Shown here one piece after another: positions 3,959 to 63,601 of a DNA stretch of 64,000 nt. Position numbers and translations under genes: made by a program. The stretch lies in NCBI GenBank assembly GCA_028691615.1, contig JAQUYX010000001.1, positions 491 through 64,490 on the forward strand, in the 5' to 3' direction. This DNA comes from Victivallaceae bacterium. Lineage in GTDB: Bacteria; Verrucomicrobiota; Lentisphaeria; Victivallales; Victivallaceae. How positions within the stretch are numbered: position 1 is the stretch's first letter; every line of letters begins with the position of its first letter. Below the pieces are notes generated by a model that saw only the letters and a list, made by a program, of their open reading frames with translations, was not told the origin of the DNA and did not search any database.

Positions 3959-4233
3959 TGTGAAAAAAGCTCCTCCTGAATGGTCTTTTTTGCTCCGTCC
4001 GTCCGGCGGGACTTTTTGCAGTACCATCTTTGCTGAAGCAATATACCCGGAACAATCCTCTTTTACAAATCCAAACCCCGGAATTTTTCCGAACGCGGCG
4101 TGACAATCCGGCATTTCGAATGCCGGATTTTACATGAAAAAAATCTTTCGTCCATTGACTTCCCCTCCCCCCTCGTGCTATTGTATTTCCCGTGGCAAGA
4201 AATCACCATCCGAAAACGGGGAGACTCCGCTTC

Positions 4234-19636: not shown

Positions 19637-19640
19637 AAGC

Positions 19641-19677
19641 GCCGGAAGACTCGACGCGAATTATGTCCAGTGCCGTC
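19641..19677 (+). repeat. 3'-terminal fragment (G) of the 165-nt repeat family
   Basis: GCCGGAAGACtCGACGCGAatTaTGtCcAGTGCCGTC matches the last ~37 nt of copy A (24938-24974). Confidence 0.6.
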
Positions 19678-19742
19678 TAACAATAGCACCGATATTTTTG
19701 TTTTTCAAGAAAGACGCTTCGATTTTCATGTGCCGGAAGGAC

Positions 19743-24436: not shown

Positions 24437-24513
24437 TGGCGAGAGAGACGGGACTCGAACCCGCAACATCCACCGTGACAGGGTGGTACTCTAACCAATT
24501 GAGCTACTCCCCC
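24437..24513 (-). tRNA. tRNA-Asp (GTC)
   Basis: Cloverleaf folded by hand. Acceptor GGGGGAG/CTCTCTC, anticodon loop CTGTCAC, TPsiC GGTTCGAGTCC, encoded CCA. Confidence 0.95.
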
Positions 24514-24583: not shown

Positions 24584-24660
24584 TGGCGAGAGAGACGGGA
24601 CTCGAACCCGCAACATCCACCGTGACAGGGTGGTACTCTAACCAATTGAGCTACTCCCCC
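24584..24660 (-). tRNA. tRNA-Asp (GTC), identical second copy
   Basis: 77/77 identical to 24437..24513. The two are separated by a 70-nt spacer. Confidence 0.95.
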
Positions 24661-24809
24661 GCGCGATTCGACTTTCTCGACAAGTCCTAAAGATACCTCC
24701 GATTTCCTTTTTTTCAAATCCAAAACCGGAAAAAAGCATTTTTTTTCTGATTTTTCATCAAAATCATATCGTAAAAGGTGGCGGACCGGATATATTATCG
24801 CAGCGAAGA

Positions 24810-24974
24810 GACGGCACTGACAAAAGTCCCGTCGATGGAATCCGGGTGGATCGGAACAGGAGTGGAATGGTGGATTTGAGCGTCGCTACTCGGAGAGTAA
24901 CGACCGAAAAGCCACCGTTTCAGGCCTTTTTCGAGGCACCGGAAGACACGACGCGAGTTTTGCCGAGTGCCGTC
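24810..24974 (+). repeat. 165-nt imperfect-palindrome repeat, copy A (reference copy)
   Basis: Termini GACGGCACT...AGTGCCGTC. Central hairpin GTCGCTACTC-GGA-GAGTAACGAC. The two arms are largely reverse-complementary. Confidence 0.85.
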
Positions 24975-25666: not shown

Positions 25667-25832
25667 GACGGCGCTGGCAAAAGTCCCGTCGATGGCTTCC
25701 GGATGAATCGGGAAAGGCGGTGGAATGGCGGATTTGAGTGTCGCTACTCGGAGAGTAACGACCGAAAAGCCGCCGTTTTCAGGCCGTTTCCGAGACGCCG
25801 GAAGACGCGGCGCGAGTTTGGTCAGGGCCGTC
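25667..25832 (+). repeat. Repeat copy B (166 nt)
   Basis: Full-length homolog of copy A. It overlaps the last 54 nt of gmhB on the opposite strand. Confidence 0.85.
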
Positions 25833-40417: not shown

Positions 40418-40534
40418 AAAAAGAAACTGTTTTCATAAAATACCGCATTCCGAATACTTTTTCAAGCGGGAAACACCACCGCATCTTGAAAAATCACCTC
40501 CGGCGGTGTAACTTGACCGGTGACATTGAAAAAA

Positions 40535-40586
40535 GACGGTGCGGACAAAAGTCCCGTCATCAGCAGTCGGAATGATCGAAACAATG
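40535..40586 (+). repeat. 5'-half fragment (E) of the 165-nt repeat family
   Basis: GACGGTGCGGACAAAAGTCCCGTC... matches the first ~50 nt of copies A and D2. The remainder has diverged. Confidence 0.5.
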
Positions 40587-40628: not shown

Positions 40629-41924
40629 GTGATTGACAACGAGCGAGAGAACAGTAAAAAATTAGAACGGGCGTATCTAATCGGATTCCGCAGCCAATTG
40701 GAGTCGGAAACCACCGTTGAAGAGCACCTGGACGAATTGAGCGAACTGGTTCGTTCGCTCGAGTTGGACGTCTGCGGCCGCAGCACAGCGACCGTTCGAT
40801 TGCCCAGCCCCGCGCTCTACATCGGCAGCGGCAAGGCCGACCAGATCATCGCGGCGGCCAAAGAGGCACAGGCCAGTTGTCTGGTCTTCGACAGCCCGCT
40901 CTCGCCCTCACAGCAACGCAATTGGGAGCACCGCAGCAAACTCACGGTAATCGACCGCGAGGAAATCATCCTCGATATTTTCGGGGAACGGGCCTCCACG
41001 CGGGAGGCAGTTCTCCAAGTCGAAGTGGCGCGCCTCCAATATTATCTGCCGCGCCTCACCCGCGCATGGAGCCACCTCTCCCGGCAGCACGGCGGCGTCA
41101 CCGGGGCGCGCGGACAGGGCGAAACCCAGATTGAAACCGACCGGCGAATTGTCAAACGGGAATTAACCGTGCTGCGCAAGGAATTGGCGGAAGTGCGTTC
41201 CCGTCGAAGTGTTCAGCGGCGGGAGCGGGAGCGCTCGGGGATTGTCTGCGGCGCGATTGTAGGATACACCAACGTCGGGAAATCCTCTCTGCTCAACGCG
41301 CTGGCGGAATCGAAAGAGGTTTACGTGGCCGACAAACTTTTTGCGACGCTGGACCCGACGACCCGGCGGATTACGCTGGGGGGACAGCAGGAGCTGTTGC
41401 TGACCGACACGGTTGGATTTGTGCGCAAACTGCCGCATTCGCTGGTGGAAGCGTTCAAATCGACGCTGGAAGAGGCGATCGAAAGCGATTTTCTCATGCT
41501 GGTGATCAATCTGGCCGAGCCCAATTTCGAGCAGCAGTGGGAGACCACGCTTTCGGTGCTGCGCGAACTGGGCGCGGAGGAGAAAAACATTCTGATGGTG
41601 TTCAACCAGATCGACCGAGTGCCGCCGGACGAGTTGCCGATGCGCATGATTCGAGCGCGCAGTCTCTTCCCGGACGCGGTTTATGTGTCTGCGAAAACCG
41701 CCGAAGGGCTTGATGCGCTGCGGTTGAAGCTCGCGCTTTACGCCGGGCGCAACCGGCAGGTGATAGAGATCAAGCTTCCGCCCGCGCGCGCCGATCTGGC
41801 CGCGTTCGCGCATGCCCGGACAACCGTGCTGGAAGAAAGTTGTGACGAGGAAGGCAATTTCAAAATGCGGCTTTCGGCGGACGAAGCAATTGTGCATAAA
41901 TTCAATCCTTTTCTCTGCAAATAA
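40629..41924 (+). CDS. hflX: GTPase HflX
   Basis: GYTNVGKSSLLNAL P-loop, DTVGF, N-terminal HflX domain. GTG start. Confidence 0.9.
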   Translation: MIDNERENSKKLERAYLIGFRSQLESETTVEEHLDELSELVRSLELDVCGRSTATVRLPSPALYIGSGKADQIIAAAKEAQASCLVFDSPLSPSQQRNWEHRSKLTVIDREEIILDIFGERASTREAVLQVEVARLQYYLPRLTRAWSHLSRQHGGVTGARGQGETQIETDRRIVKRELTVLRKELAEVRSRRSVQRRERERSGIVCGAIVGYTNVGKSSLLNALAESKEVYVADKLFATLDPTTRRITLGGQQELLLTDTVGFVRKLPHSLVEAFKSTLEEAIESDFLMLVINLAEPNFEQQWETTLSVLRELGAEEKNILMVFNQIDRVPPDELPMRMIRARSLFPDAVYVSAKTAEGLDALRLKLALYAGRNRQVIEIKLPPARADLAAFAHARTTVLEESCDEEGNFKMRLSADEAIVHKFNPFLCK

Positions 41925-41929
41925 TCAGG

Positions 41930-42445
41930 AACGGAACGACGAAAATGAAACATAGTCCCGACGATGGATTTCAGATGGATTCGGAAGTGGAACGGAGAAA
42001 CGATTGTGAGGGTGGCTACTCGGAGAGGAACCACCGAAAAAGCAGGCCTTCAAGCCTTTTCCGAGCCGCCGGAAGACGCGCCGCGAGTTTGGGCAATGCC
42101 GTCACTTCAGACGGCACTGTCAAAAGTCCCGACGATGGATTCCGGATGGATCGGGAATGGGATGAAGTTCCTGATTGTGAGGGTGGCTACTCGGAGAGTA
42201 ACCACCGAAAAAGCAGGTCTTCAGGCCTTTTCCGAGCCGCCGGAAGACGCGCCGCGAGTTTGGGCAATGCCGTCACTTCAGACGGCACTGTCAAAAGTCC
42301 CGACGATGGATTCCGGATGGATCGGGAATGGGATGAAGTTCCTGATTGTGAGGGTGGCTACTCGGAGAGTAACCACCGAAAAAGCAGGTCTTCAGGCCTT
42401 TTCCGAGCCGCCGGAAGACGCGCCGCGAGTTTGGGCAATGCCGTC
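41930..42445 (+). repeat. Tandem array of three copies (C1 degenerate at its 5' end; C2=42110..42274; C3=42281..42445) of the 165-nt repeat, period 171 nt
   Basis: C2 and C3 are identical. A 6-nt ACTTCA spacer between copies creates CAATGCCGTC-ACTTCA-GACGGCACTG junction hairpins. Confidence 0.9.
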
Positions 42446-42454
42446 ACTTCACTT

Positions 42455-45400
42455 TTGATCCTTCTACTGCTCCTCGGAGGGCCATCGCTAACCTCCGCCG
42501 AAAATTTTTCGCCTTGGGACGCATGGCGGCAGGGGTATGTCCTGACCGAAAAAGGGCGTACTGCATTCGACAAAGGAGATTACAAAACCGCCCGGGAAAA
42601 TTTCCGGCAGGCGCGGGAGTGCTACACCCAGATCAAGACCGAACGCCCCGATTGGAACCACAAGATCATCGATACGCGAATCTCGATCTGCGATCAGGAA
42701 TTGGCCAAAGTCTCCGGGAAAATCGGGACGGGGGAACCCTCGCCCAAACCAGCCGGAGTCGCCGCGCCAACCAAGCCGTCCGGCAGCGAAGATTTTGATT
42801 CCGACGCATCCGGCGACCTCTATCGACTGCGCAACGAACTGGCCGCGACACGCCGCAAACTGGTCGCCGATTCGGTCGAAATCGAGGAGCTGCGCAAACA
42901 GCTGCGCAACACCAAGGCGACTTCGGCGGAGATGGAAAATCTGCTGCGCGAAAAACTCCTTCTTCAGGAAAAATACGAGCTGCTCGACCGCCGTTTCCGC
43001 GAATTGGAGAAACAGTCCGCCAGTCCCAAGGGAGAATTGCAGCAGGCGCAACGCCAGCTCGACGAGGAGAAGTTGCACTCTTCCGCCGCACGCCGCCAAG
43101 TGCAGGAAGTCCAGCAGCGCCTCGATAAACTCACCGAGGAAAACGCCTCGCTCTACCGGATGCGCAATCAATTGCGCAGCGAGCTGGAAAAAAGCGAAAA
43201 AGAACGCAACGATTTGAAGACTTTGCGCACCAGCGCGGAAAATCTGCGCCGTTCCTTCGACATCGAACTGGCGCGGCTGCGCGACGAAGTGTCCAGTTTG
43301 AAGCGGCTGCAGGATTCTGCGGAAAAAACCGCCTCGACCTTGCGCGAAGAGAACACCAAACTTTACCGTTGGCTCGAAGAGGCCCGCAAGGGCGGCGAAT
43401 CCAGCAGCAAACTCAACACCGAGGCCACCGCGGAAAATAAGCGCCTCCTCGGGGAGCTCGCGCGGCTCACCGCCGAAGTGGAAAAATCCGCCAACGCCAA
43501 AGCCGACGCCATCGCAGAACTCAAACGCCTGCGCGATGAAAACGAATCCTTTCGCTCTTCCACCGCCAGACTTGACGCACGAAACCGCGAATTGGGATCG
43601 GCCGTCCAGCGCCAGACGGAGTTGTTCGACCGGCTGCGTCAGGACGCGCTCAACACCGAGGCCGAACGCAAGAAATTGAGCAATCAACTTGCCGAACGCG
43701 AACGCGAACTCAAGGATTGGATCGACCGCTGCGAGACGCTTAAGAAGCGTCAGCAGACCAGCAGTGAAGCCGAACTTGCCGGAATTTCCGCGGCAAACGA
43801 GGCGCGCCGCCGCCTCGAGCAGGAAGTCTCCGAACTGAAAATCTCGCTCCGGGAAGCACAGATTCGCCACAATCTCTCCACCGACCGGGTGGCCGTGCTG
43901 GAGGCGCAGGAGAAGGAAACCGCAAGTCGGCTGCGAGCGCTTCAGACCACGCAAAAAACGCAGGAGGAAGAGCTCAAACGCCTTCGCCCCGTCCGCAACC
44001 GCGTCCTCGCATTGGAGACAGAAAAGTCCGCGCTGGAACGCAACATCGCCGCATTGAAGAAGGACGCGGCAACAGCCGCCGTAACCGAAAGCGAGCGCAA
44101 TCACCTGCGCGCCGAAAATATCAAGCTTACCGAAGCGAACGCACAGTTGCAGCCCTTGCAGCAAAAAATAGTTGCGGCAGACCGCCTCAACCAGCAGTTG
44201 AGCAACCGGGTCGTTGCACTGGAAAACAAGCACCACCTTGCCACGCAGGAAGCCGTCCGCTTGACGAAAACACTTGCAGAGACCACCAAAGAACTGAATC
44301 TGCAATCCTCCCGTTACAGCGCCGCGATCGCCGACGCCAGAGTGCTGTCGGACAAAGCCCTTGCCAACAGTAAGGCCATGTTGACCGAAGCCACCGAAAA
44401 TTACAACGCACTCCTTCCCAAATACACCGCCGCGACGCAGGAACTTCGCGCCCAATCCGCAGAACTGAAAACCCTCCGGGAGAACGCGGCTCGCGAGAAG
44501 GAGACCATCGCACAAAACACCCGTCTGCGCGAGGAACTTGCCACCCTCTCTCGCCTCCGCGCCGCCGAAAAAGCAGCAGCAGCAGCCGCATCGGAGGCGT
44601 TGAGCAAACAACTTGCCGGGGAGAAGACACTGGCAAACGCCATCGCCGCCCGTCTCAAAGAGGCGGAAAAAGCGCAGAGTTTATTCCGACAGGACTCCCG
44701 CGCACGCCTGGAGAGCGCAACTCAGGCGCGCGCCGCCGCCGAAGCAGCCACTCGCAAGGCGGAGGAACGCATTGCCCTGCTTGAACAGGAGGCGCAGGCC
44801 AATCTCCGGCGCGAGCAGGAATTGACCCGGCAGCTTTCGGAGGAACGCATTCTTCTGGCCAAGGCGCAATCCGCCGCCGCAGCCGAGGATTCCGGCAAGC
44901 GCAATGCCACCGAACGCGAAAAAGCATTCACCGATCGCATCGCACAACTTCAAAAAACCGTCAGCGAAGGAGAACTGCGCGCAAAGGAGCTTTCCACCCG
45001 CCTCGCTCAGGAGAAAGAACTCCGCCAAAAAGCGCAGGCCGCCGCCGCGCAGCACGCCGCGCAGATCGCCCAAAGCAATGCGCAAGCCGCGCAAATCCAG
45101 CGCAACCGCAACGCTTCTCTCGAAGAAGAACTCGCCGCCACCAAAAAAGCGCTCGCCGATGCGAATGCTGCGACCGCAAAGGCGCAAAGCCTCATCGATT
45201 CCGGCAATCACACCGCCAAGGCGAACCGCGATCAACTCGCTTCTCTGACGGGAGCGCTCACCGCAAAAAAACAATCCATCGACGCGCTGCAAAAAGAGAT
45301 CGCTTCGCTGCGCAATAAACTCGCACTCGTCTCGGCTCCGGTGAAAACCGCTCCCGCCCCTGCGCCCGTGGTCGTTCCGGTGCCGAAAAATACCCCCTCC

Positions 45401-46534
45401 GCCGCAGAAATCACCGCGCTCCGGCAGGAGTTGGCCGCCTCCATCGAGCGCGAAAAAGCATTGACGGCAAAACTTTCCGCCGCCGCCATCGTCCGTCCCG
45501 TCGTCCCGAAGAGCGCTCCCCTTCCGGCGCCTTCCATTTTGCCTGCCCCGTCGATTCCTCCGGCAGCGCAGGATGTCGATTTTTCCAGCTATCTGGCCGG
45601 CGGCAGGAAAGCACTTGCGGAAGGCAACGAGGATCTCGCCGTCTGGAATTTCCGGAAAACACTCGAAATCGATCCGGGCAATTTCGAGGCAAATTGTCTT
45701 TTGGGCAAACTCTACCTCGCACGCGACCAGTTTCCCGAAAGCGCGGCGGCATTGCAAAAAGCCTGCGTCGCCGCACCGGACAATCCGGAGAGCGCCGCGC
45801 TCTACGCCGAAGCACTGCTCGCACAAAACAAGCCGGGCAACGCCCTTGAAATTGTGGAAAAATTCGCCAAGACAAAAAATCCCGCCCCCGCGATTCTTTT
45901 GACTTACGGACGGGCGCTGACCGGCGCCGACCGCGGCGCCGACGCCGTGACGGTTCTGGAACAATTCACCGCAGCACAACAAAAATCCGCCCCCGGGGCC
46001 CTCGCGCTTGCGTCGGCGCTGGCCAAAGCCGGTCGCGACAAGGATGCCGCCGCCGCCTACCACCGGGCCAGAAAACTCGGCGCCGCCCCGGACGCCCGTC
46101 TGGAAGAGCTGACGAAAAAGTCCGGTCAGACGACCGCGGACGAACAAATGCTGCAATTCCTTCGGGAAACCGCCGCCGAAGCGGAAAAATCCGGCGATTA
46201 CGCCTCCGCTCTCTGGTATCAGCTGGAGATCGGCAAATATCGCGGCAGTCCGGAGAATAAACGCAGCATCGGCGCATTGATGGCGCTCTCCGGCGACGGT
46301 GACGGCGCCTTCGCATTGGCCAAGACGCTTCCCGCAGGTACAGATCGGGAGGTGATCTCCGGCATGGGCGCATTTGCCAAGGGCGATTTCGAGGCGGCGC
46401 AAAACCATATGCGCAAGGCCGCCTCCGGGCGCATTGATCCGGCCGTGCTCGCCCGGCTCGCAAAACAGATCTCCGGCAAACAGGACGATCGTGCCGCACA
46501 AGCAATCGCCGCCGCTCGAAAGCTGCTGAAATGA
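42455..46534 (+). CDS. Giant coiled-coil protein with an N-terminal hydrophobic signal/anchor, an N-terminal TPR-like module and a C-terminal TPR domain. Start uncertain; alternatives are the ATG at 41945 or ATGs inside the repeats.
   Basis: ~1000 aa of uninterrupted A/E/L/K/R/Q-rich heptad-like sequence. LLILLLLLGGPSLTSA hydrophobic segment, Pro-rich linkers, and TPR-like C-terminus (EIDPGNFEANCLLGKLYL...). The first in-frame ATG downstream of the repeats is ~330 codons in, so I propose the TTG at 42455. Confidence 0.7.
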   Translation: MILLLLLGGPSLTSAENFSPWDAWRQGYVLTEKGRTAFDKGDYKTARENFRQARECYTQIKTERPDWNHKIIDTRISICDQELAKVSGKIGTGEPSPKPAGVAAPTKPSGSEDFDSDASGDLYRLRNELAATRRKLVADSVEIEELRKQLRNTKATSAEMENLLREKLLLQEKYELLDRRFRELEKQSASPKGELQQAQRQLDEEKLHSSAARRQVQEVQQRLDKLTEENASLYRMRNQLRSELEKSEKERNDLKTLRTSAENLRRSFDIELARLRDEVSSLKRLQDSAEKTASTLREENTKLYRWLEEARKGGESSSKLNTEATAENKRLLGELARLTAEVEKSANAKADAIAELKRLRDENESFRSSTARLDARNRELGSAVQRQTELFDRLRQDALNTEAERKKLSNQLAERERELKDWIDRCETLKKRQQTSSEAELAGISAANEARRRLEQEVSELKISLREAQIRHNLSTDRVAVLEAQEKETASRLRALQTTQKTQEEELKRLRPVRNRVLALETEKSALERNIAALKKDAATAAVTESERNHLRAENIKLTEANAQLQPLQQKIVAADRLNQQLSNRVVALENKHHLATQEAVRLTKTLAETTKELNLQSSRYSAAIADARVLSDKALANSKAMLTEATENYNALLPKYTAATQELRAQSAELKTLRENAAREKETIAQNTRLREELATLSRLRAAEKAAAAAASEALSKQLAGEKTLANAIAARLKEAEKAQSLFRQDSRARLESATQARAAAEAATRKAEERIALLEQEAQANLRREQELTRQLSEERILLAKAQSAAAAEDSGKRNATEREKAFTDRIAQLQKTVSEGELRAKELSTRLAQEKELRQKAQAAAAQHAAQIAQSNAQAAQIQRNRNASLEEELAATKKALADANAATAKAQSLIDSGNHTAKANRDQLASLTGALTAKKQSIDALQKEIASLRNKLALVSAPVKTAPAPAPVVVPVPKNTPSAAEITALRQELAASIEREKALTAKLSAAAIVRPVVPKSAPLPAPSILPAPSIPPAAQDVDFSSYLAGGRKALAEGNEDLAVWNFRKTLEIDPGNFEANCLLGKLYLARDQFPESAAALQKACVAAPDNPESAALYAEALLAQNKPGNALEIVEKFAKTKNPAPAILLTYGRALTGADRGADAVTVLEQFTAAQQKSAPGALALASALAKAGRDKDAAAAYHRARKLGAAPDARLEELTKKSGQTTADEQMLQFLRETAAEAEKSGDYASALWYQLEIGKYRGSPENKRSIGALMALSGDGDGAFALAKTLPAGTDREVISGMGAFAKGDFEAAQNHMRKAASGRIDPAVLARLAKQISGKQDDRAAQAIAAARKLLK

Positions 46535-53659: not shown

Positions 53660-53682
53660 CTTAAAATTTTTCTCCGGTTGCG

Positions 53683-53792
53683 ATGGAGGATTTGAGCAAA
53701 AGCGACTGGGCAAGTTCCGCCCCGAAAAGCCACCGTTTCAGGCCTTTTTCGAGCCGCCGGAAAACACAACGCGAACTTTTCCGAGTGCCGTC
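53683..53792 (+). repeat. Repeat copy D1 (5'-truncated, central hairpin diverged)
   Basis: The 3' ~75 nt align with other copies and end in GAGTGCCGTC. Confidence 0.7.
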
Positions 53793-53798
53793 CACAGA

Positions 53799-53962
53799 GA
53801 CGGTGCTGACAAAGATCCCGTCGATGGATTCCGGATGGATCGAGAAAGGAATGGAATGGTGGGTTTGAGCGTCGCTACTCGGAGAGTAACGACCGAAAAG
53901 CCACCGTTTCAAGCCTTTTTCGAGCCGCCGGAAAACACAACGCGAACTTTGTCAGCACCGTC
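53799..53962 (+). repeat. Repeat copy D2 (164 nt, perfect 12-bp terminal inverted repeat)
   Basis: GACGGTGCTGAC...GTCAGCACCGTC. Central hairpin identical to copy A. Confidence 0.85.
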
Positions 53963-54012: not shown

Positions 54013-54041
54013 TTGCAAAACACCCGAAGAACGGATATATT
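54013..54041 (+). promoter_or_regulatory. Sigma-70-type promoter TTGCAA-N17-TATATT upstream of apgM
   Basis: Hexamers and 17-nt spacing read directly. ~40 nt upstream of the GTG at 54080. Confidence 0.45.
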
Positions 54042-54079
54042 ATCGATAAAAAAAACATCCATCAAGATTGGGGAAAACC

Positions 54080-56562: not shown

Positions 56563-56627
56563 CCGACCTGAAAATCGGAGGGAAACGGACAACGGAAGAC
56601 TTGAAGCGAGTTTTGCCGAGTGCCGTC
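56563..56627 (+). repeat. 3'-half fragment (F) of the 165-nt repeat family
   Basis: ...CGGAAGACttGAaGCGAGTTTTGCCGAGTGCCGTC is almost identical to the 3' end of copy A. Confidence 0.6.
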
Positions 56628-56742
56628 GCAAAAAACTTGGATCAAGCCGCTCGGAAGGGAATGACCGCAATTCAAGTTTTTTTCAAACACCGAATCATGC
56701 AATACAAATTTTAACAGTGTCGTCCAAACAAGGAGGTTCGCT

Positions 56743-57309: not shown

Positions 57310-57634
57310 TCCGGCCGGAGAATGGAGGAATTCTGTCACAACGTCCGACGGTCTTGAAAAACAGCCGTCGGACAAGTCGGGCCGGTCGGACCGGTTCGAC
57401 TTCCGTGCCGTTTTCAAGAGTTGCGGCAGTGCTGTCAAATATAAGGGAACGTCTGTTCCTTGGGTTGCGTAGAAAATCAATGAATTGTGCTGCAGAATCA
57501 TGTTTTGGTAAGGGACTGGCTGGCAACGCCAACCAGTCCCTTGGCAAGGCGTGATTATGGAGTGCAAGACATGATTTTATGGCAAAATTCCAAGGAATAG
57601 AGGGTCCCATAAGGTCTGAAGAGGTTTTTTTATC

Positions 57635-60600
57635 ATGACATCCCGACTTTTTTTTCTGCTGCTGCTTGCAATCCTTCCGGCGCTCAACGCGCTGGAAATC
57701 AGAAAAAATCTCAATCAAACCGTCTTCCCTTATGATCCGCGCAATGTCACAATCAAAAGCGACCGCAAGCTGGTCGAAAACCGGACGCTCGAATACCACA
57801 GCAACCGCAGCGGACGGCTGCTCAAGCTGGTTCCCGGCGTCAGCAATTTCACCCAGACTTTGACCGCCGCCGCCGATGTGCCGATCCCTCCGGGCACGCT
57901 GCGCCTCAAATTCGACGTCAAGGTCGAAGGCGTCGGACCGGCCGATCTCTCGGCAATCTTCTCCGGAACCAACGAAAAGCAGGAGATCATCGTCCCGGTG
58001 ATCCGGTTGACCGCGTCCCCCTGGCGAACCTATTACTGCGAAGTGCCTGCGAACGCCCGGAAATTCCGGGGCATTGGCCTCAAACTTCCCGGCAGAACCA
58101 ACGCGGAATACAGTTTCGGGCTGGTCGAATTCGACTCCGCCGTCCGCGACGGCAAAAATTTCTGGACGCTGCGCGATCTGGACGAGTCCGCGGATCACCT
58201 TCAACAGTTCAGCGGACACAGAGTGGATGTTCAAGGTTCCGACAAGGACAACGCATTGCCGCTGCGTTACTTCTTCGACCGCCCGAACGTGGCGAAAATC
58301 GTCGGAATCCTTTACGACGGGAAGCGCAAAACGCTGGCCAATTTCACGTTGGACGCGCGCGAAATCGGCGATATCCGCCAATATGACCTGTTGCTGCCGC
58401 AACTGCCCGCGGGACATTATTGGATCGAACTGAATCGTTTTGACGGCAATCGGCATTTCGTCGACAACCGCCTGCACTCCTACTGGATCGCATTCTCGCC
58501 GGTTCCCAAAGCGCCGCTGCCGCTGCTGACGACATTTTCCCGGATCGCGCCGCACTCGGCACGACCGTCAACCACGGTTTCCGAAGGCAGCAAATATTTC
58601 ATTGTATCGGCCGACAAGCTGGCCGAGGGAGAGCGTCTGGAAGGGTTTTGGCGCTCCCCGGAAGGCAAAATTTTCCCCGCCGAAATCACGCAATACAATC
58701 TGGTGAAAAACCCGCCCGTTGTCATCCGCCCCGCCGTGTGGAAACTGACCTTGCGTTTGCTGCGCGGAACAGAAATTCTCGACGGACGCACCCTCGAAAT
58801 CTATTTTTCCGGCATAACCAACCGGATCGAAGACAAAAAAGAAAATGCACCGCCGCGACCCGTCGGCGCCTTCCCGCTCGTGTTCCACGAAAAAATCAGT
58901 GTACAGCAGCCGGGGCAGAAGACCGCCGCCGGGAAATGGATCGCCGGTTCCGGCAACGCAGTCTGGAGCAGCGCCTTCCGCTGGGGAGAGCTGGAACCGC
59001 TCGAAGGAAGAATTCAATATCCGCTGATCGACTCCCGGCTTGCAGAGGCGCGGGAAACGGGAACCCCGTTCGAATTGAGCTGGTATTTCAACGGCGATCA
59101 GCTCCCGAAATTTCTCTGGTATGACGCGCTGCTCGACAATCAACAGAAGTTCACCACACGCCGCTTCAGCCCCGGCAGCGAGAGAATCAGCTCCGCCGTC
59201 GCCCGGACCGTGCGCGCCCTCGTGCTGAAATACCGTTCCAATCCCAGCATCCGCAGCTGGAATTTCTCCAGCGGCGTCCGCGACGCTTGGAACGATGACG
59301 CCCCGCGCGGACGCATTGGCGGATTCGATCCATCCAGCATCGCCGCATTTCGGAGCTATCTGGAAAAGAATCCGGACGCCGCAAAAGAGTACGCCGCACC
59401 GTCAGCCACAGCGATGCCGCCAGTCATTGATTTCCAATCCGGGAACGCGCCGGGCAAGGAAATTCTCATTTGGAGCCGATTCCGAAAGCAGCTGCTTTTG
59501 GGGTATTACGAAACACTGTTCGAAGCGGTTCGCTCCACAGACAAATTCCGCCCGATCGTCCAACGGCTGGACAATGGCGGCGGAAGCCCGGCGGAACTCT
59601 TGGAACTTTTCCGCAAATACAATGTGACAGTGGAACTGACTGGCGGCGAAAACCAGTTATCCATCCCGATGCAGTCGCTGGCATGGCAGTACGCAGTGCC
59701 CGTGCGCCTGACCGCGACGCCGGGCATTCTGCCGCACAGAGCCTTGCTGGAACTGCTCTTCTTCAAACAGCTGGCCATCGGCGGAACACGCGGCGGAATC
59801 AGCATCGATCTCGGATTCGACCACCCGGTTCCGCCGGACGGCAAAGCCGAACATGGCAGAGATCTGGAAAGGCAAAAGCAGTTGGAGGTTTTCCGCCATG
59901 CCGCACAGTTGGCCGGACACCTCTCCTCGCTTGATCTGGGCGCGCCGGTGGCTTCGCCGGTGGCGGCCGGACTTGGTTCGCTCAGTCTGCGGCTGGCGGG
60001 ACGCTCGACCAATTGGGAAAATTTTGCCGAGCGCAACGTCAACGGGTTCCACGATTTGATCGCACTGGCCTCCGAACGGGGCAATGCACTGCCGTTCGTG
60101 ACCGAATCGGCGGCGCCGGAGATTCTCGACCGTTATCGGACAATCGTATTCCATCCGTCGCCGGATATCGCCAATGCCGATGCGCTGAAACTCGCAGGCT
60201 ATGTCAAGCGCGGCGGGAAACTGATTCTCTTCGGCGATTTCGCCATCCGCGACGAAAAAGGAATGCCGTCGAACACCTTCCACGCGCTGACCGCCGCTCC
60301 GCGCAAAGAAGGGGAAACCGCCTATGGCAAGGGCAAAATTGTCGTGCTTCCGGCGACCGCCGATTTCCGCCGGGAGGCGGGAAAGCAGCTGGAACTGGCG
60401 GGATTGCGTCCGCCCGCGGTCTCCGAAGATGAGCGCGTGCTCACCGGATTCCGGCGCAACCACGCGGGCAAAGGATATCTGATTTTGTACGGGAAAAACT
60501 GGGTGGGCGTCAATCCAACGCAGGAAGAGGTCGGCGCCGGGAAACTGCGCGCCCGAATCAAAGTGCAATCTCAATTCGCCCCGAAAACCCGCTGCAAGCT

Positions 60601-60760
60601 CCGCGACGTGACCGACCCGAAACGGACTCGGGAACTTCCGGACGCGACCGCCGAAGAGCTGGCCGCCGGAATCTTGCTGGACGTCGACTGCGGAGCGCTG
60701 CGAATTCTCGAGATCACGCCGGAAGAGCCGGCGCAAGTTTTGGCAGCGCCGTCAAAATAA
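57635..60760 (+). CDS. Large secreted putative glycoside hydrolase (GH42-like TIM barrel plus a trimerisation/GATase-like domain, with a long N-terminal extension)
   Basis: Signal peptide (LFFLLLLAILPALNA). Central WGELEPLEGRIQYPLIDSRL resembles the GH42/GH35-type barrel start. C-terminal IVFHPSPD...GGKLILFGDF resembles the GH42 middle domain. Confidence 0.45.
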   Translation: MTSRLFFLLLLAILPALNALEIRKNLNQTVFPYDPRNVTIKSDRKLVENRTLEYHSNRSGRLLKLVPGVSNFTQTLTAAADVPIPPGTLRLKFDVKVEGVGPADLSAIFSGTNEKQEIIVPVIRLTASPWRTYYCEVPANARKFRGIGLKLPGRTNAEYSFGLVEFDSAVRDGKNFWTLRDLDESADHLQQFSGHRVDVQGSDKDNALPLRYFFDRPNVAKIVGILYDGKRKTLANFTLDAREIGDIRQYDLLLPQLPAGHYWIELNRFDGNRHFVDNRLHSYWIAFSPVPKAPLPLLTTFSRIAPHSARPSTTVSEGSKYFIVSADKLAEGERLEGFWRSPEGKIFPAEITQYNLVKNPPVVIRPAVWKLTLRLLRGTEILDGRTLEIYFSGITNRIEDKKENAPPRPVGAFPLVFHEKISVQQPGQKTAAGKWIAGSGNAVWSSAFRWGELEPLEGRIQYPLIDSRLAEARETGTPFELSWYFNGDQLPKFLWYDALLDNQQKFTTRRFSPGSERISSAVARTVRALVLKYRSNPSIRSWNFSSGVRDAWNDDAPRGRIGGFDPSSIAAFRSYLEKNPDAAKEYAAPSATAMPPVIDFQSGNAPGKEILIWSRFRKQLLLGYYETLFEAVRSTDKFRPIVQRLDNGGGSPAELLELFRKYNVTVELTGGENQLSIPMQSLAWQYAVPVRLTATPGILPHRALLELLFFKQLAIGGTRGGISIDLGFDHPVPPDGKAEHGRDLERQKQLEVFRHAAQLAGHLSSLDLGAPVASPVAAGLGSLSLRLAGRSTNWENFAERNVNGFHDLIALASERGNALPFVTESAAPEILDRYRTIVFHPSPDIANADALKLAGYVKRGGKLILFGDFAIRDEKGMPSNTFHALTAAPRKEGETAYGKGKIVVLPATADFRREAGKQLELAGLRPPAVSEDERVLTGFRRNHAGKGYLILYGKNWVGVNPTQEEVGAGKLRARIKVQSQFAPKTRCKLRDVTDPKRTRELPDATAEELAAGILLDVDCGALRILEITPEEPAQVLAAPSK

Positions 60761-63505: not shown

Positions 63506-63548
63506 GAAATTTTCCCAAACTCCGGCTTGCTTGTGCGGAGTAAAAAAA

Positions 63549-63601
63549 ATGCCGTCCAGAGAATCCCCGCAATGAGGGTCTTTGGACGGCATCTTTTTTT
63601 T
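63549..63601. terminator. Bidirectional rho-independent terminator between rho and the convergent pseudopilin-like gene
   Basis: A8-ATGCCGTCCA...TGGACGGCAT-T8. Confidence 0.75.

Follow-up and report, generated by a model that had tools for sequence, protein, structure and literature searches.

A tandem array of miniature inverted-repeat elements at the start of a TPR/coiled-coil protein gene in a Victivallaceae bacterium

Where does a protein begin when a block of repeats stands across the start of its gene? The question is raised by a 64,000-nt stretch of DNA from a Victivallaceae bacterium (the window; all coordinates refer to its full length), in which three units of a hairpin-forming repeat lie between hflX and a long gene for a tetratricopeptide repeat (TPR)/coiled-coil protein. 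We find that the repeat is a miniature inverted-repeat transposable element (MITE). Comparison with orthologous loci indicates that the array was inserted in frame into the signal peptide of the TPR protein, where it parts the n-region from the h-region. The whole account, namely a MITE array within a signal peptide, an ancestral start codon kept in front of it, and translation running through the repeats, is the one that we favour, with some reserve.

The array and its host gene

The locus is organized as follows.

40629..41924, plus strand: hflX (GTPase HflX), stop codon TAA at 41922-41924; identified by Pfam domains and Lentisphaerota homologs, with an identical copy on Logan contig L005
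41925..41953, plus strand: native leader, purine-rich AGGAACGGAA, and ATG AAA CAT (41945-41953, Met-Lys-His); no alignment to the element
41954..42103, plus strand: unit 1 (D1), a 5'-truncated, decayed MITE copy without a left target-site duplication (TSD); from nhmmer, pairwise comparison and fold
42104..42109, plus strand: ACTTCA spacer, a hexamer of TSD length (the 6-bp length is set by 5/5 related copies)
42110..42274, plus strand: unit 2 (D2), an intact 165-nt MITE (GACGGCACTG...CAATGCCGTC); covariance model score 168.9 bits, -82.6 kcal/mol
42275..42280, plus strand: ACTTCA spacer and TSD copy, from sequence
42281..42445, plus strand: unit 3 (D3), identical to unit 2 by blastn and pairwise comparison (recent duplication or re-insertion)
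42446..42451, plus strand: ACTTCA, the right-hand TSD copy, from sequence
42452..42499, plus strand: signal peptide h- and c-regions (LLILLLLLGGPSLTSA), predicted cleavage after Ala (42497-42499); from alignment with six ortholog N-termini
42500..46534, plus strand: mature TPR/coiled-coil protein (ENFSPWDAWRQGY...), a conserved neighbour of hflX; from synteny in L001, L003 and L006-L009 and TPR Pfam matches

Tandem Repeats Finder describes 41954-42451 as an array with a period of 171 nt, 2.9 copies and 95% matches. In pairwise comparison, units 2 and 3 agree at 165/165 positions, and blastn finds 181/181 identity over their junction. The 6-nt spacer ACTTCA stands behind every unit, and a hairpin can form from the end of one unit and the beginning of the next (CAATGCCGTC-ACTTCA-GACGGCACTG). 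In these respects an earlier note on this DNA was right: it had described a tandem array of period 171 between hflX and the coiled-coil gene, the identity of units 2 and 3 (taken there as a recent duplication), the spacers with their inter-unit hairpin, and a hydrophobic signal segment directly after the last repeat, where LLILLLLLGGPSLTSA indeed abuts the final ACTTCA. The array does not start at 41930, as was thought then, since repeat-derived DNA begins at 41954 and 41925-41953 is native. The junction of hflX and unit 1 is identical in an independent Logan assembly (SRR22315505), whose contig L005 breaks inside the repeat.

Unit 1 has decayed. Its alignment to the element covers nhmmer model positions 16-170, the first 15 nt being absent, and it differs from unit 2 at 19 positions. 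The 5' arm accounts for 16 of these differences, a 10-nt block among them; a further change, G42028, falls in the otherwise invariant apical loop. Its predicted fold has -48.6 kcal/mol, against -82.6 kcal/mol for each of units 2 and 3. The 10-nt block of the 5' arm (TGGAACGGAGAAACGA, 41989-42003) resembles the native leader AGGAACGGAACGA (41928-41939), which may point to copying of a short patch from a template, as opposed to separate point mutations.

The original form of the gene can be read from its orthologs. In six relatives (L001, L003, L006-L009), a TPR protein of 944-955 amino acids starts -4 to +17 nt after hflX; in the window, ATG 41945 comes 20 nt after the hflX stop. The ortholog N-termini consist of a short signal peptide followed by (D/N)FSPWDAWR, or by NAWDIWR in L009, the most divergent. 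The array is absent from all six loci by covariance model searches and by N-terminal alignment. In-silico excision of 41954-42451 (498 nt, 166 codons) gives MKHLLILLLLLGGPSLTSAENFSPWDAWR, in which MKHLLILLLLLGGPSLTSA stands directly before ENFSPWDAWR; an in-silico empty site would read ATGAAACAT[ACTTCA]CTTTTG. The Victivallis ortholog reads MKHLFIAALLAAVLPLLSGAAKNAWDIWR; it starts MKHLF..., and has MKH in common with the window start. The motif WDxWR occupies residues 25-29 in the reconstructed protein and in the Victivallis ortholog, and the same positions hold for ortholog L009. Because the orthologs lack the array and its excision rebuilds a signal peptide, ATG 41945 is, by this comparison, the ancestral start and no product of the repeat.

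This result alters the earlier view of the start codons. The array had been said to contain the upstream ATGs of the gene, which holds for 41975, 42146 and 42317 but not for 41945, which lies outside the repeat. An annotation starting at 41945 had been said to need checking; the orthologs and the excision make 41945 the most defensible start. The next in-frame ATG past the array, at 42932, is codon 330 of the open reading frame (ORF) and lies about 160 codons past the array, rather than about 330 as was stated.

In all six relatives the pre-protein as a whole measures 944-955 amino acids. The mature protein alone (codons 42500-46531) has about 1345 in the window, and its central coiled-coil region appears greatly expanded in the window lineage. 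A search with the mature N-terminal domain gave no match at E <= 1e-3. The best homologs of the HflX protein are from Lentisphaerota (Victivallales) with at most 61% identity, so the databases hold no close relative of the host.

A mobile family of hairpins

The 165-nt element is present in the window at four full loci and as at least five fragments, as found by blastn, a covariance model and nhmmer. Its core motif occurs six times, against none expected from 100 shuffles. The repeat is thus a dispersed family and no local satellite. Its other members in the window are the following.

24810..24974, plus strand: copy A, between tRNA-Asp (minus strand) and a DUF308 gene (plus strand); blastn, covariance model
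25667..25832, plus strand: copy B, 3' of the DUF308 gene; blastn, covariance model
53678..53790, plus strand: 5'-truncated copy (model positions 54-169), followed by a 6-nt spacer, CACAGA; nhmmer
53799..53962, plus strand: copy C, in tandem with the preceding partial copy; -99.7 kcal/mol, covariance model
19637..19680, plus strand: solo 3' arm fragment; nhmmer, E = 6e-7
40534..40582, plus strand: solo 5' arm fragment (49 nt) upstream of hflX; nhmmer
56590..56629, plus strand: solo 3' arm fragment upstream of frr; nhmmer
60705..60759, plus strand: solo 3' arm fragment forming the last ~18 codons of ORF 57635-60760; nhmmer

Every unit is predicted to fold as one long imperfect hairpin, with energies in the window from -83 to -100 kcal/mol if the decayed unit 1 is excepted. 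The fold of copy C has z = -12.3, and none of 200 shuffles is as stable. In all window copies the given strand is more stable than its complement, as is the sense strand in 14/16 copies of a 16-sequence alignment. In that alignment, 35 of the 51 predicted pairs have pair-preserving changes on both sides, and 91.8% of the cells are paired as compared to 38-47% in slid controls, values that 0/500 shuffles reach. The apical 37 nt (UGAG.GUSGCUACUCGNAGAGUAACSACCGAAAA) are essentially invariant among the 16 copies. No match to ribozyme cores (hammerhead and similar) was found in this apical module by eye or in Rfam. A search of the window with Rfam 15 in gathering mode returned only tRNAs, and in E-value mode only chance-level matches (E >= 0.12).

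One subfamily bears clear marks of transposition. The five SIG94-type copies, named after a metagenome-assembled genome (MAG) with copies on three contigs, have a perfect 19-bp terminal inverted repeat (TIR), GGCGGCAGTGCCAAAAGTC, with 19/19 matches at both ends; the termini of the window copies are GACGGCACTG and CAGTGCCGTC. All five loci are at unrelated sites and are flanked by perfect 6-bp direct repeats (GCAGTA, CATTGA, CGAACA, AGGCAG and TTGCCG). The base just outside GGCGG is A or G and covaries with its right-hand partner, which sets the duplication length at 6 bp. A core of 165 nt with a 6-bp TSD makes 171 nt per insertion, and this is the period of the array, with ACTTCA as the reused TSD. 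In the window the duplication varies: ACTTCA flanks units 2 and 3, copy A matches at 4/6 positions, and copies B and C have none. Across the family the core measures 164-166 nt, and no frame is open throughout; other subfamilies have stops in all or most frames, and the SIG94-type copies carry TAG in the apical loop. On these grounds we reject family-wide selection for a translatable frame, of the kind that Rickettsia palindromic elements (RPEs) would suggest. The window proteins include no transposase, no reverse transcriptase and no Y1_Tnp domain. With its small size, TIR, TSD, many copies and lack of coding capacity, the element fits the definition of a MITE, and we conclude that it is one. 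The family, its structure and its TIR and TSD are demonstrated in this way, as are the array-free orthologs and the ancestral N-terminus described above.

Tandem pairs with 6-nt spacers recur: they are seen in the partial and full copies at copy C and in the proteins P0121 and P0124 (see below). They point either to re-insertion into a flanking target copy or to slippage between short repeats. An excess of 5'-truncated fragments in the window had made a retroelement-like origin a candidate, which is unsupported given the clean TSDs and TIRs. All full copies and significant fragments in the window are on the plus strand while the neighbouring genes point both ways, the only minus-strand match being a weak one of 26 nt (4004-4029). 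The uniform orientation may reflect a replication-linked insertion bias; the GC skew of the window gave no replichore signal. That orientation follows transcription, and so reflects a function at the RNA level, is contradicted as a rule by copies such as those of L028 and L026, which are antisense to both neighbours (in L028 the genes for a PL8 lyase and LacI).

The family extends beyond this genome. A strict 26-nt apical pattern had no matches in GTDB genomes and JGI metagenomes. The covariance model found a full copy in the relative L008 (3806-3971), between tRNA-Leu (minus strand) and hflX (plus strand), and the pattern was then relaxed at the positions that differ in this copy (GCTACTCGNAGAGNAACNACCGA). 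The relaxed pattern found seven loci in five Lentisphaerota/Victivallales MAGs and seven metagenome contigs. Complete copies outside the window are all 166-169 nt long, and four contigs have a terminus in the element or no more than 20 nt away from it. The solo fragment at 40534-40582 of the window lies at exactly the position of the L008 copy, so that either an ancient common insertion or a recurrent hot spot may be involved. In viral contigs, a 17-nt pattern (16 specified bases) gave 12 single matches, none supported by the covariance model, which we attribute to chance. A blastn search with one unit against phage and plasmid collections found no match. Nothing linking Victivallis or Lentisphaerae with MITEs or REPs was found in the literature searched. 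The element is a previously undescribed MITE family of gut Lentisphaerota, of a kind already familiar in bacteria.

Probable translation through the array

The order of events, read-through and export can be reconstructed as follows. A non-autonomous 165-nt near-perfect palindrome would be moved in trans by a transposase that makes 6-bp staggered cuts, each insertion adding 165 + 6 = 171 nt, or 57 codons. The first copy would have entered behind the third codon and so parted the charged n-region (Met-Lys-His) from the hydrophobic core. Extra units could have come from re-insertion into the flanking ACTTCA, or from polymerase slippage between ACTTCA repeats brought close by the hairpin, and units 2 and 3 presumably arose very recently. 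An in-frame loss of 21 nt, comprising the left ACTTCA and the first 15 nt of unit 1, may have followed, and more changes in the 5' arm of unit 1 would have melted the hairpin beside the start codon. Translation from ATG 41945 through the array would then produce a charged, probably disordered cytoplasmic extension of about 166 residues. The Arg-rich RAAGRRAAS at its end, before the hydrophobic segment, would make that segment a possible internal signal or anchor, with cleavage after TSA.

Read-through translation of the array seems to us somewhat probable. The ancestral start has been kept, as has its distance from hflX, and the 498-nt insert is a multiple of 3 and stop-free. In a partition-function fold, ATG 41945 is the most accessible of the candidate starts, with a mean P(unpaired) of 0.50. 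The downstream ORF of 1359 codons is intact, although unit 1 had time to diverge, and its GC content at third codon positions (GC3) is 0.67, as in neighbouring genes. RAAGRRAAS before the hydrophobic segment fits an N-in orientation. Peptides encoded by the repeat in frame with the TPR gene would include SPDDGFRMDREWDEVPDCEGGYSESNHRK. Among proteins, the array peptide matches nothing but predicted ORFs that run over further copies of the element, and these provide a precedent within the family: P0122, a Victivallaceae MAG protein, contains one in-frame copy between VQL/VQL, and P0121 (also from a Victivallaceae MAG) and P0124 are ORFs called over other tandem arrays with 57-aa periods. A search for contigs of origin found none for P0121 and P0122. 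Six-frame peptides of the element had no match among 5.8 G proteins.

Several observations weigh against this reading. Both the ORF 41945..46534 (1529 aa) and a second-frame ORF, 41964..42458, are open over the whole array, and the same frame is open in every copy of the element in the window genome, which upholds the earlier caution that openness is weak evidence of coding. Whole units never shift the frame, and by our estimate the coincidence would occur about 1 in 4-5 times without selection; an in-frame, stop-free insert is then only about 4-5 times likelier under read-through than by chance. ATG 41945 is preceded by a weak Shine-Dalgarno sequence (GGAA), the orthologs having AGGAGG or AAGGAG. 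For Sec export, it is unusual that a hydrophobic signal should have some 170 residues in front of it, and the ribosome must unwind two intact hairpins of -83 kcal/mol. The five ATG-start versions of the ORF (41945, 41975, 42146, 42317 and 42932) are not in the protein database searched, so no pipeline call backs those starts; nor is the second-frame ORF (41964-42455 without its stop) found there. As to the origin of the array, TSDs are clear in one subfamily and degraded or absent for the window copies A, B and C, and no autonomous partner insertion sequence (IS) was found in the window or beside the solo TIRs of the examined loci. Conservation of a ~170-aa N-terminal region in orthologs, which the earlier note had named as evidence against an untranslated array, is not seen in the six relatives.

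If the array is not translated, it could be a structured 5' leader, with the protein starting at a non-ATG codon at the array end, which we regard as unlikely. Two candidate starts, TTG 42431 (MGNAVTSLLILLLLLGGPSLTSA) and TTG 42455 (MILLLLLGGPSLTSA), are in frame and would give signal-like N-terminal peptides, and the N-terminus is where all six orthologs carry their signal peptide. At TTG 42455, termination-reinitiation would be possible, since the TGA stop of the second-frame ORF (42456-42458) overlaps it as TTGA. However, neither TTG is preceded by a Shine-Dalgarno sequence; the start codon at 42455 has a P(unpaired) of 0.01, and TTG 42431 is inside the 3' arm of unit 3. The resulting signal peptides would lack a charged n-region, the version from 42455 having only about seven hydrophobic residues, and the kept ancestral ATG, its spacing from hflX and the stop-free 498-nt path would go unexplained. 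A dedicated regulatory leader, an option raised in the earlier note, is contradicted by the absence of the array from the six orthologs and by copies in unrelated contexts and both orientations. The alternative offered there, that a mobile or structured element supplies the N-terminal tail, is borne out with regard to mobility (TIR, TSD, copies) and to location in the 5' end of the gene, but not with regard to a start codon from the repeat, ATG 41945 being ancestral. It is also doubtful that the insertion has crippled the gene, leaving a recent and not yet decayed casualty with poor production or no export. The identity of units 2 and 3 makes part of the array very young, the insertion splits the signal peptide, and two further ORFs have lost their original 3' ends to the element. 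Against this stand the intact 1359-codon downstream ORF, with its GC3 of 0.67 like that of its neighbours, and unit 1, which differs from unit 2 at 19 positions yet has no in-frame stop. That the gene is kept beside hflX in 6/6 relatives suggests that it matters.

The nature of the element is a separate issue. It might be no cut-and-paste MITE but a REPIN-like or IS200/IS605-type single-stranded DNA (ssDNA) element (RAYT/Y1), or a repeated structured RNA gene. Each unit forms a single hairpin over its entire length, with G.U (G.T) pairs and signs of compensatory evolution, its sense strand is favoured in 14/16 copies, the apical module is invariant, all window copies are on one DNA strand, and the solo arms resemble REP singlets as described for REPINs (PMC3116915). 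The perfect 6-bp TSDs (5/5) and 19-bp TIRs are, in contrast, hallmarks of staggered-cut transposition. Such duplications and TIRs are not expected for insertion of the IS200/IS605 or RAYT type. An RNA gene or leader is further opposed by the copies antisense to both neighbours (L028, L026) and by unrelated contexts, and an RNA gene by the lack of an Rfam match, so that we rate these possibilities as very improbable. From the invariant apical module, the one-strand copies and the excess of 5'-truncated fragments, a small probability does remain for a more unusual mechanism, in which the element would be more than a passive MITE: the strictly conserved 165-nt rod, the apical module and the strand-specific G.U pairs would be signs that a dedicated protein binds it in single-stranded form (RNA or ssDNA), the one-strand orientation would reflect replication-coupled or RNA-mediated insertion, and the element would serve as a protein-extension module. 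We think this doubtful too. Were it true, insertion would follow a mechanism not described for TSD-generating elements (9-11 copies being counted in the window), and the 57-codon stop-free unit would be reusable as an extension, as it would have been where the TPR protein begins and where a HAD-like hydrolase and ORF 57635-60760 end. Insertion of a MITE and translation from ATG 41945 remain the reading that we prefer.

Gene ends, neighbouring features and comparison with known elements

The window is an ordinary chromosome by its gene content (ClpB, HtpG, EF-G, Rho, Frr, CoaE, TilS, HflX). The MITE has, as far as the sequence tells, remodelled three ORF ends within these 64 kb. Besides the TPR gene, a convergent ORF for a HAD-like hydrolase takes its last 17 codons and stop from copy B in antisense (25779-25832, minus strand), ending in ...IFQM followed by DGPDQTRAASSGVSETA and the stop. 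The last ~18 codons of the 1041-aa ORF 57635-60760 are likewise element-derived (60705-60760, plus strand), the protein ending in ...PEEPAQVLAAPSK.

Other features lie close to copies of the element. Two identical tRNA-Asp(GTC) genes (24437-24513 and 24584-24660, minus strand), 147 nt apart from start to start, are just upstream of copy A, whose TTGTCA (minus strand, 24823-24818) forms with GATAAT a 10/12 promoter-like site facing the tRNA pair. The exact 14-mer CGGATATATTATCG occurs twice (24787-24800 and 54032-54045), where 0.14 occurrences are expected even with two mismatches; both occurrences overlap -10-like hexamers and lie near a MITE copy, in the space between divergent genes. After rho, a terminator-like hairpin (63542-63599, AAAAAAAATGCCGTCCAGAGA...TCTTTGGACGGCATCTTTTTT) holds in one arm TGCCGTCCAGAGA, a sequence that recurs unchanged at the 3' end of copy A with its flank.

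A second long hairpin is found at 57441-57614, between frr and the next plus-strand gene. Its core (57447-57608) is 162 nt. The fold has -93.7 kcal/mol (z = -12.8), with an advantage in stability of 27 kcal/mol for the sense over the antisense strand. It is flanked by the direct repeat ATAAGG/ATAAGG and is probably another MITE family with the same 6-bp TSD length. As a candidate member of the first family (hairpin E, 57444-57610), it scored with the first covariance model but was unmatched by a broader one (R2), and it is treated as a separate family.

For annotation, the start of the TPR gene is best placed at ATG 41945, with about 166 residues after Met-Lys-His regarded as transposon-derived and not as a protein domain. 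Short-read assemblies break at the element, as in Logan contig L005 and several JGI contigs, whose ends fall within it. The family is a new repeat for an under-studied gut phylum, present neither in Rfam nor in the literature searched, and a covariance model, the TIR and the TSD now describe it. It could be of use in strain typing and in the search for the partner transposase. The locus itself offers a natural experiment on the N-terminal cargo that a bacterial signal peptide tolerates and on the remodelling of ORF ends by MITEs.

The element can be compared with several classes of bacterial repeats. The ERIC/YPAL repeats of enterobacteria are imperfect palindromes of ~127-170 bp in transcribed intergenic regions, with predicted long RNA hairpins. 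They have no sequence relation to the present family and belong to a different taxon, and here the TSD and TIR are defined. Mycobacterial MIRUs are tandem intergenic operon units, co-oriented with genes, with units of a length that preserves the overlap of small ORFs with neighbouring stop and start codons, for which the overlap of the second-frame ORF stop (TGA) with TTG 42455 may be compared. However, MIRUs are minisatellites of 46-101 bp without hairpin, TIR or TSD. In architecture, with the whole unit as one hairpin, REPINs and ERIC-type repeats come nearest to the element. REPINs and REP sequences with RAYT (PMC3116915) share with it the two-arm hairpin, its compensatory conservation in ssDNA or RNA, solo arms left by decay and ordered tandem clusters of near-identical units. 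They are of the IS200/IS605 type without TIR or TSD, and no RAYT was seen in the window; the clean 6-bp TSDs of the present family contradict its membership in the REPIN/RAYT group.

By its defining features the element belongs with the bacterial MITEs, among them the Correia elements (CREE) of Neisseria and those reviewed in PMC10969869: like them it is small, non-coding, multicopy and mostly intergenic, has TIR and TSD, can fuse to ORF ends and may carry promoter-like hexamers. There is no sequence similarity to the described MITE families, and the TSD is 6 bp here but TA in Correia. Moreover, the present element forms a covarying hairpin over its whole length, and not at its termini alone, with an invariant 37-nt apical module. 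The present family is restricted to Lentisphaerota, and its parent IS was found neither in the window nor at the examined loci. Closest in behaviour are the RPEs, palindromes of ~150 nt whose in-frame insertion lengthens a protein by a peptide segment and leaves the ORF whole (PMC10969869); the 57-codon increment and the open frame of the array recall them. Unlike RPEs, the present family has its host in another phylum, the Lentisphaerota, is unrelated in sequence and has most of its copies in intergenic regions. In the present family the open frame is not general, as the TAG in the apical loop of SIG94-type copies illustrates, and what sets this locus apart from RPE insertions is a tandem triple inside a signal peptide.

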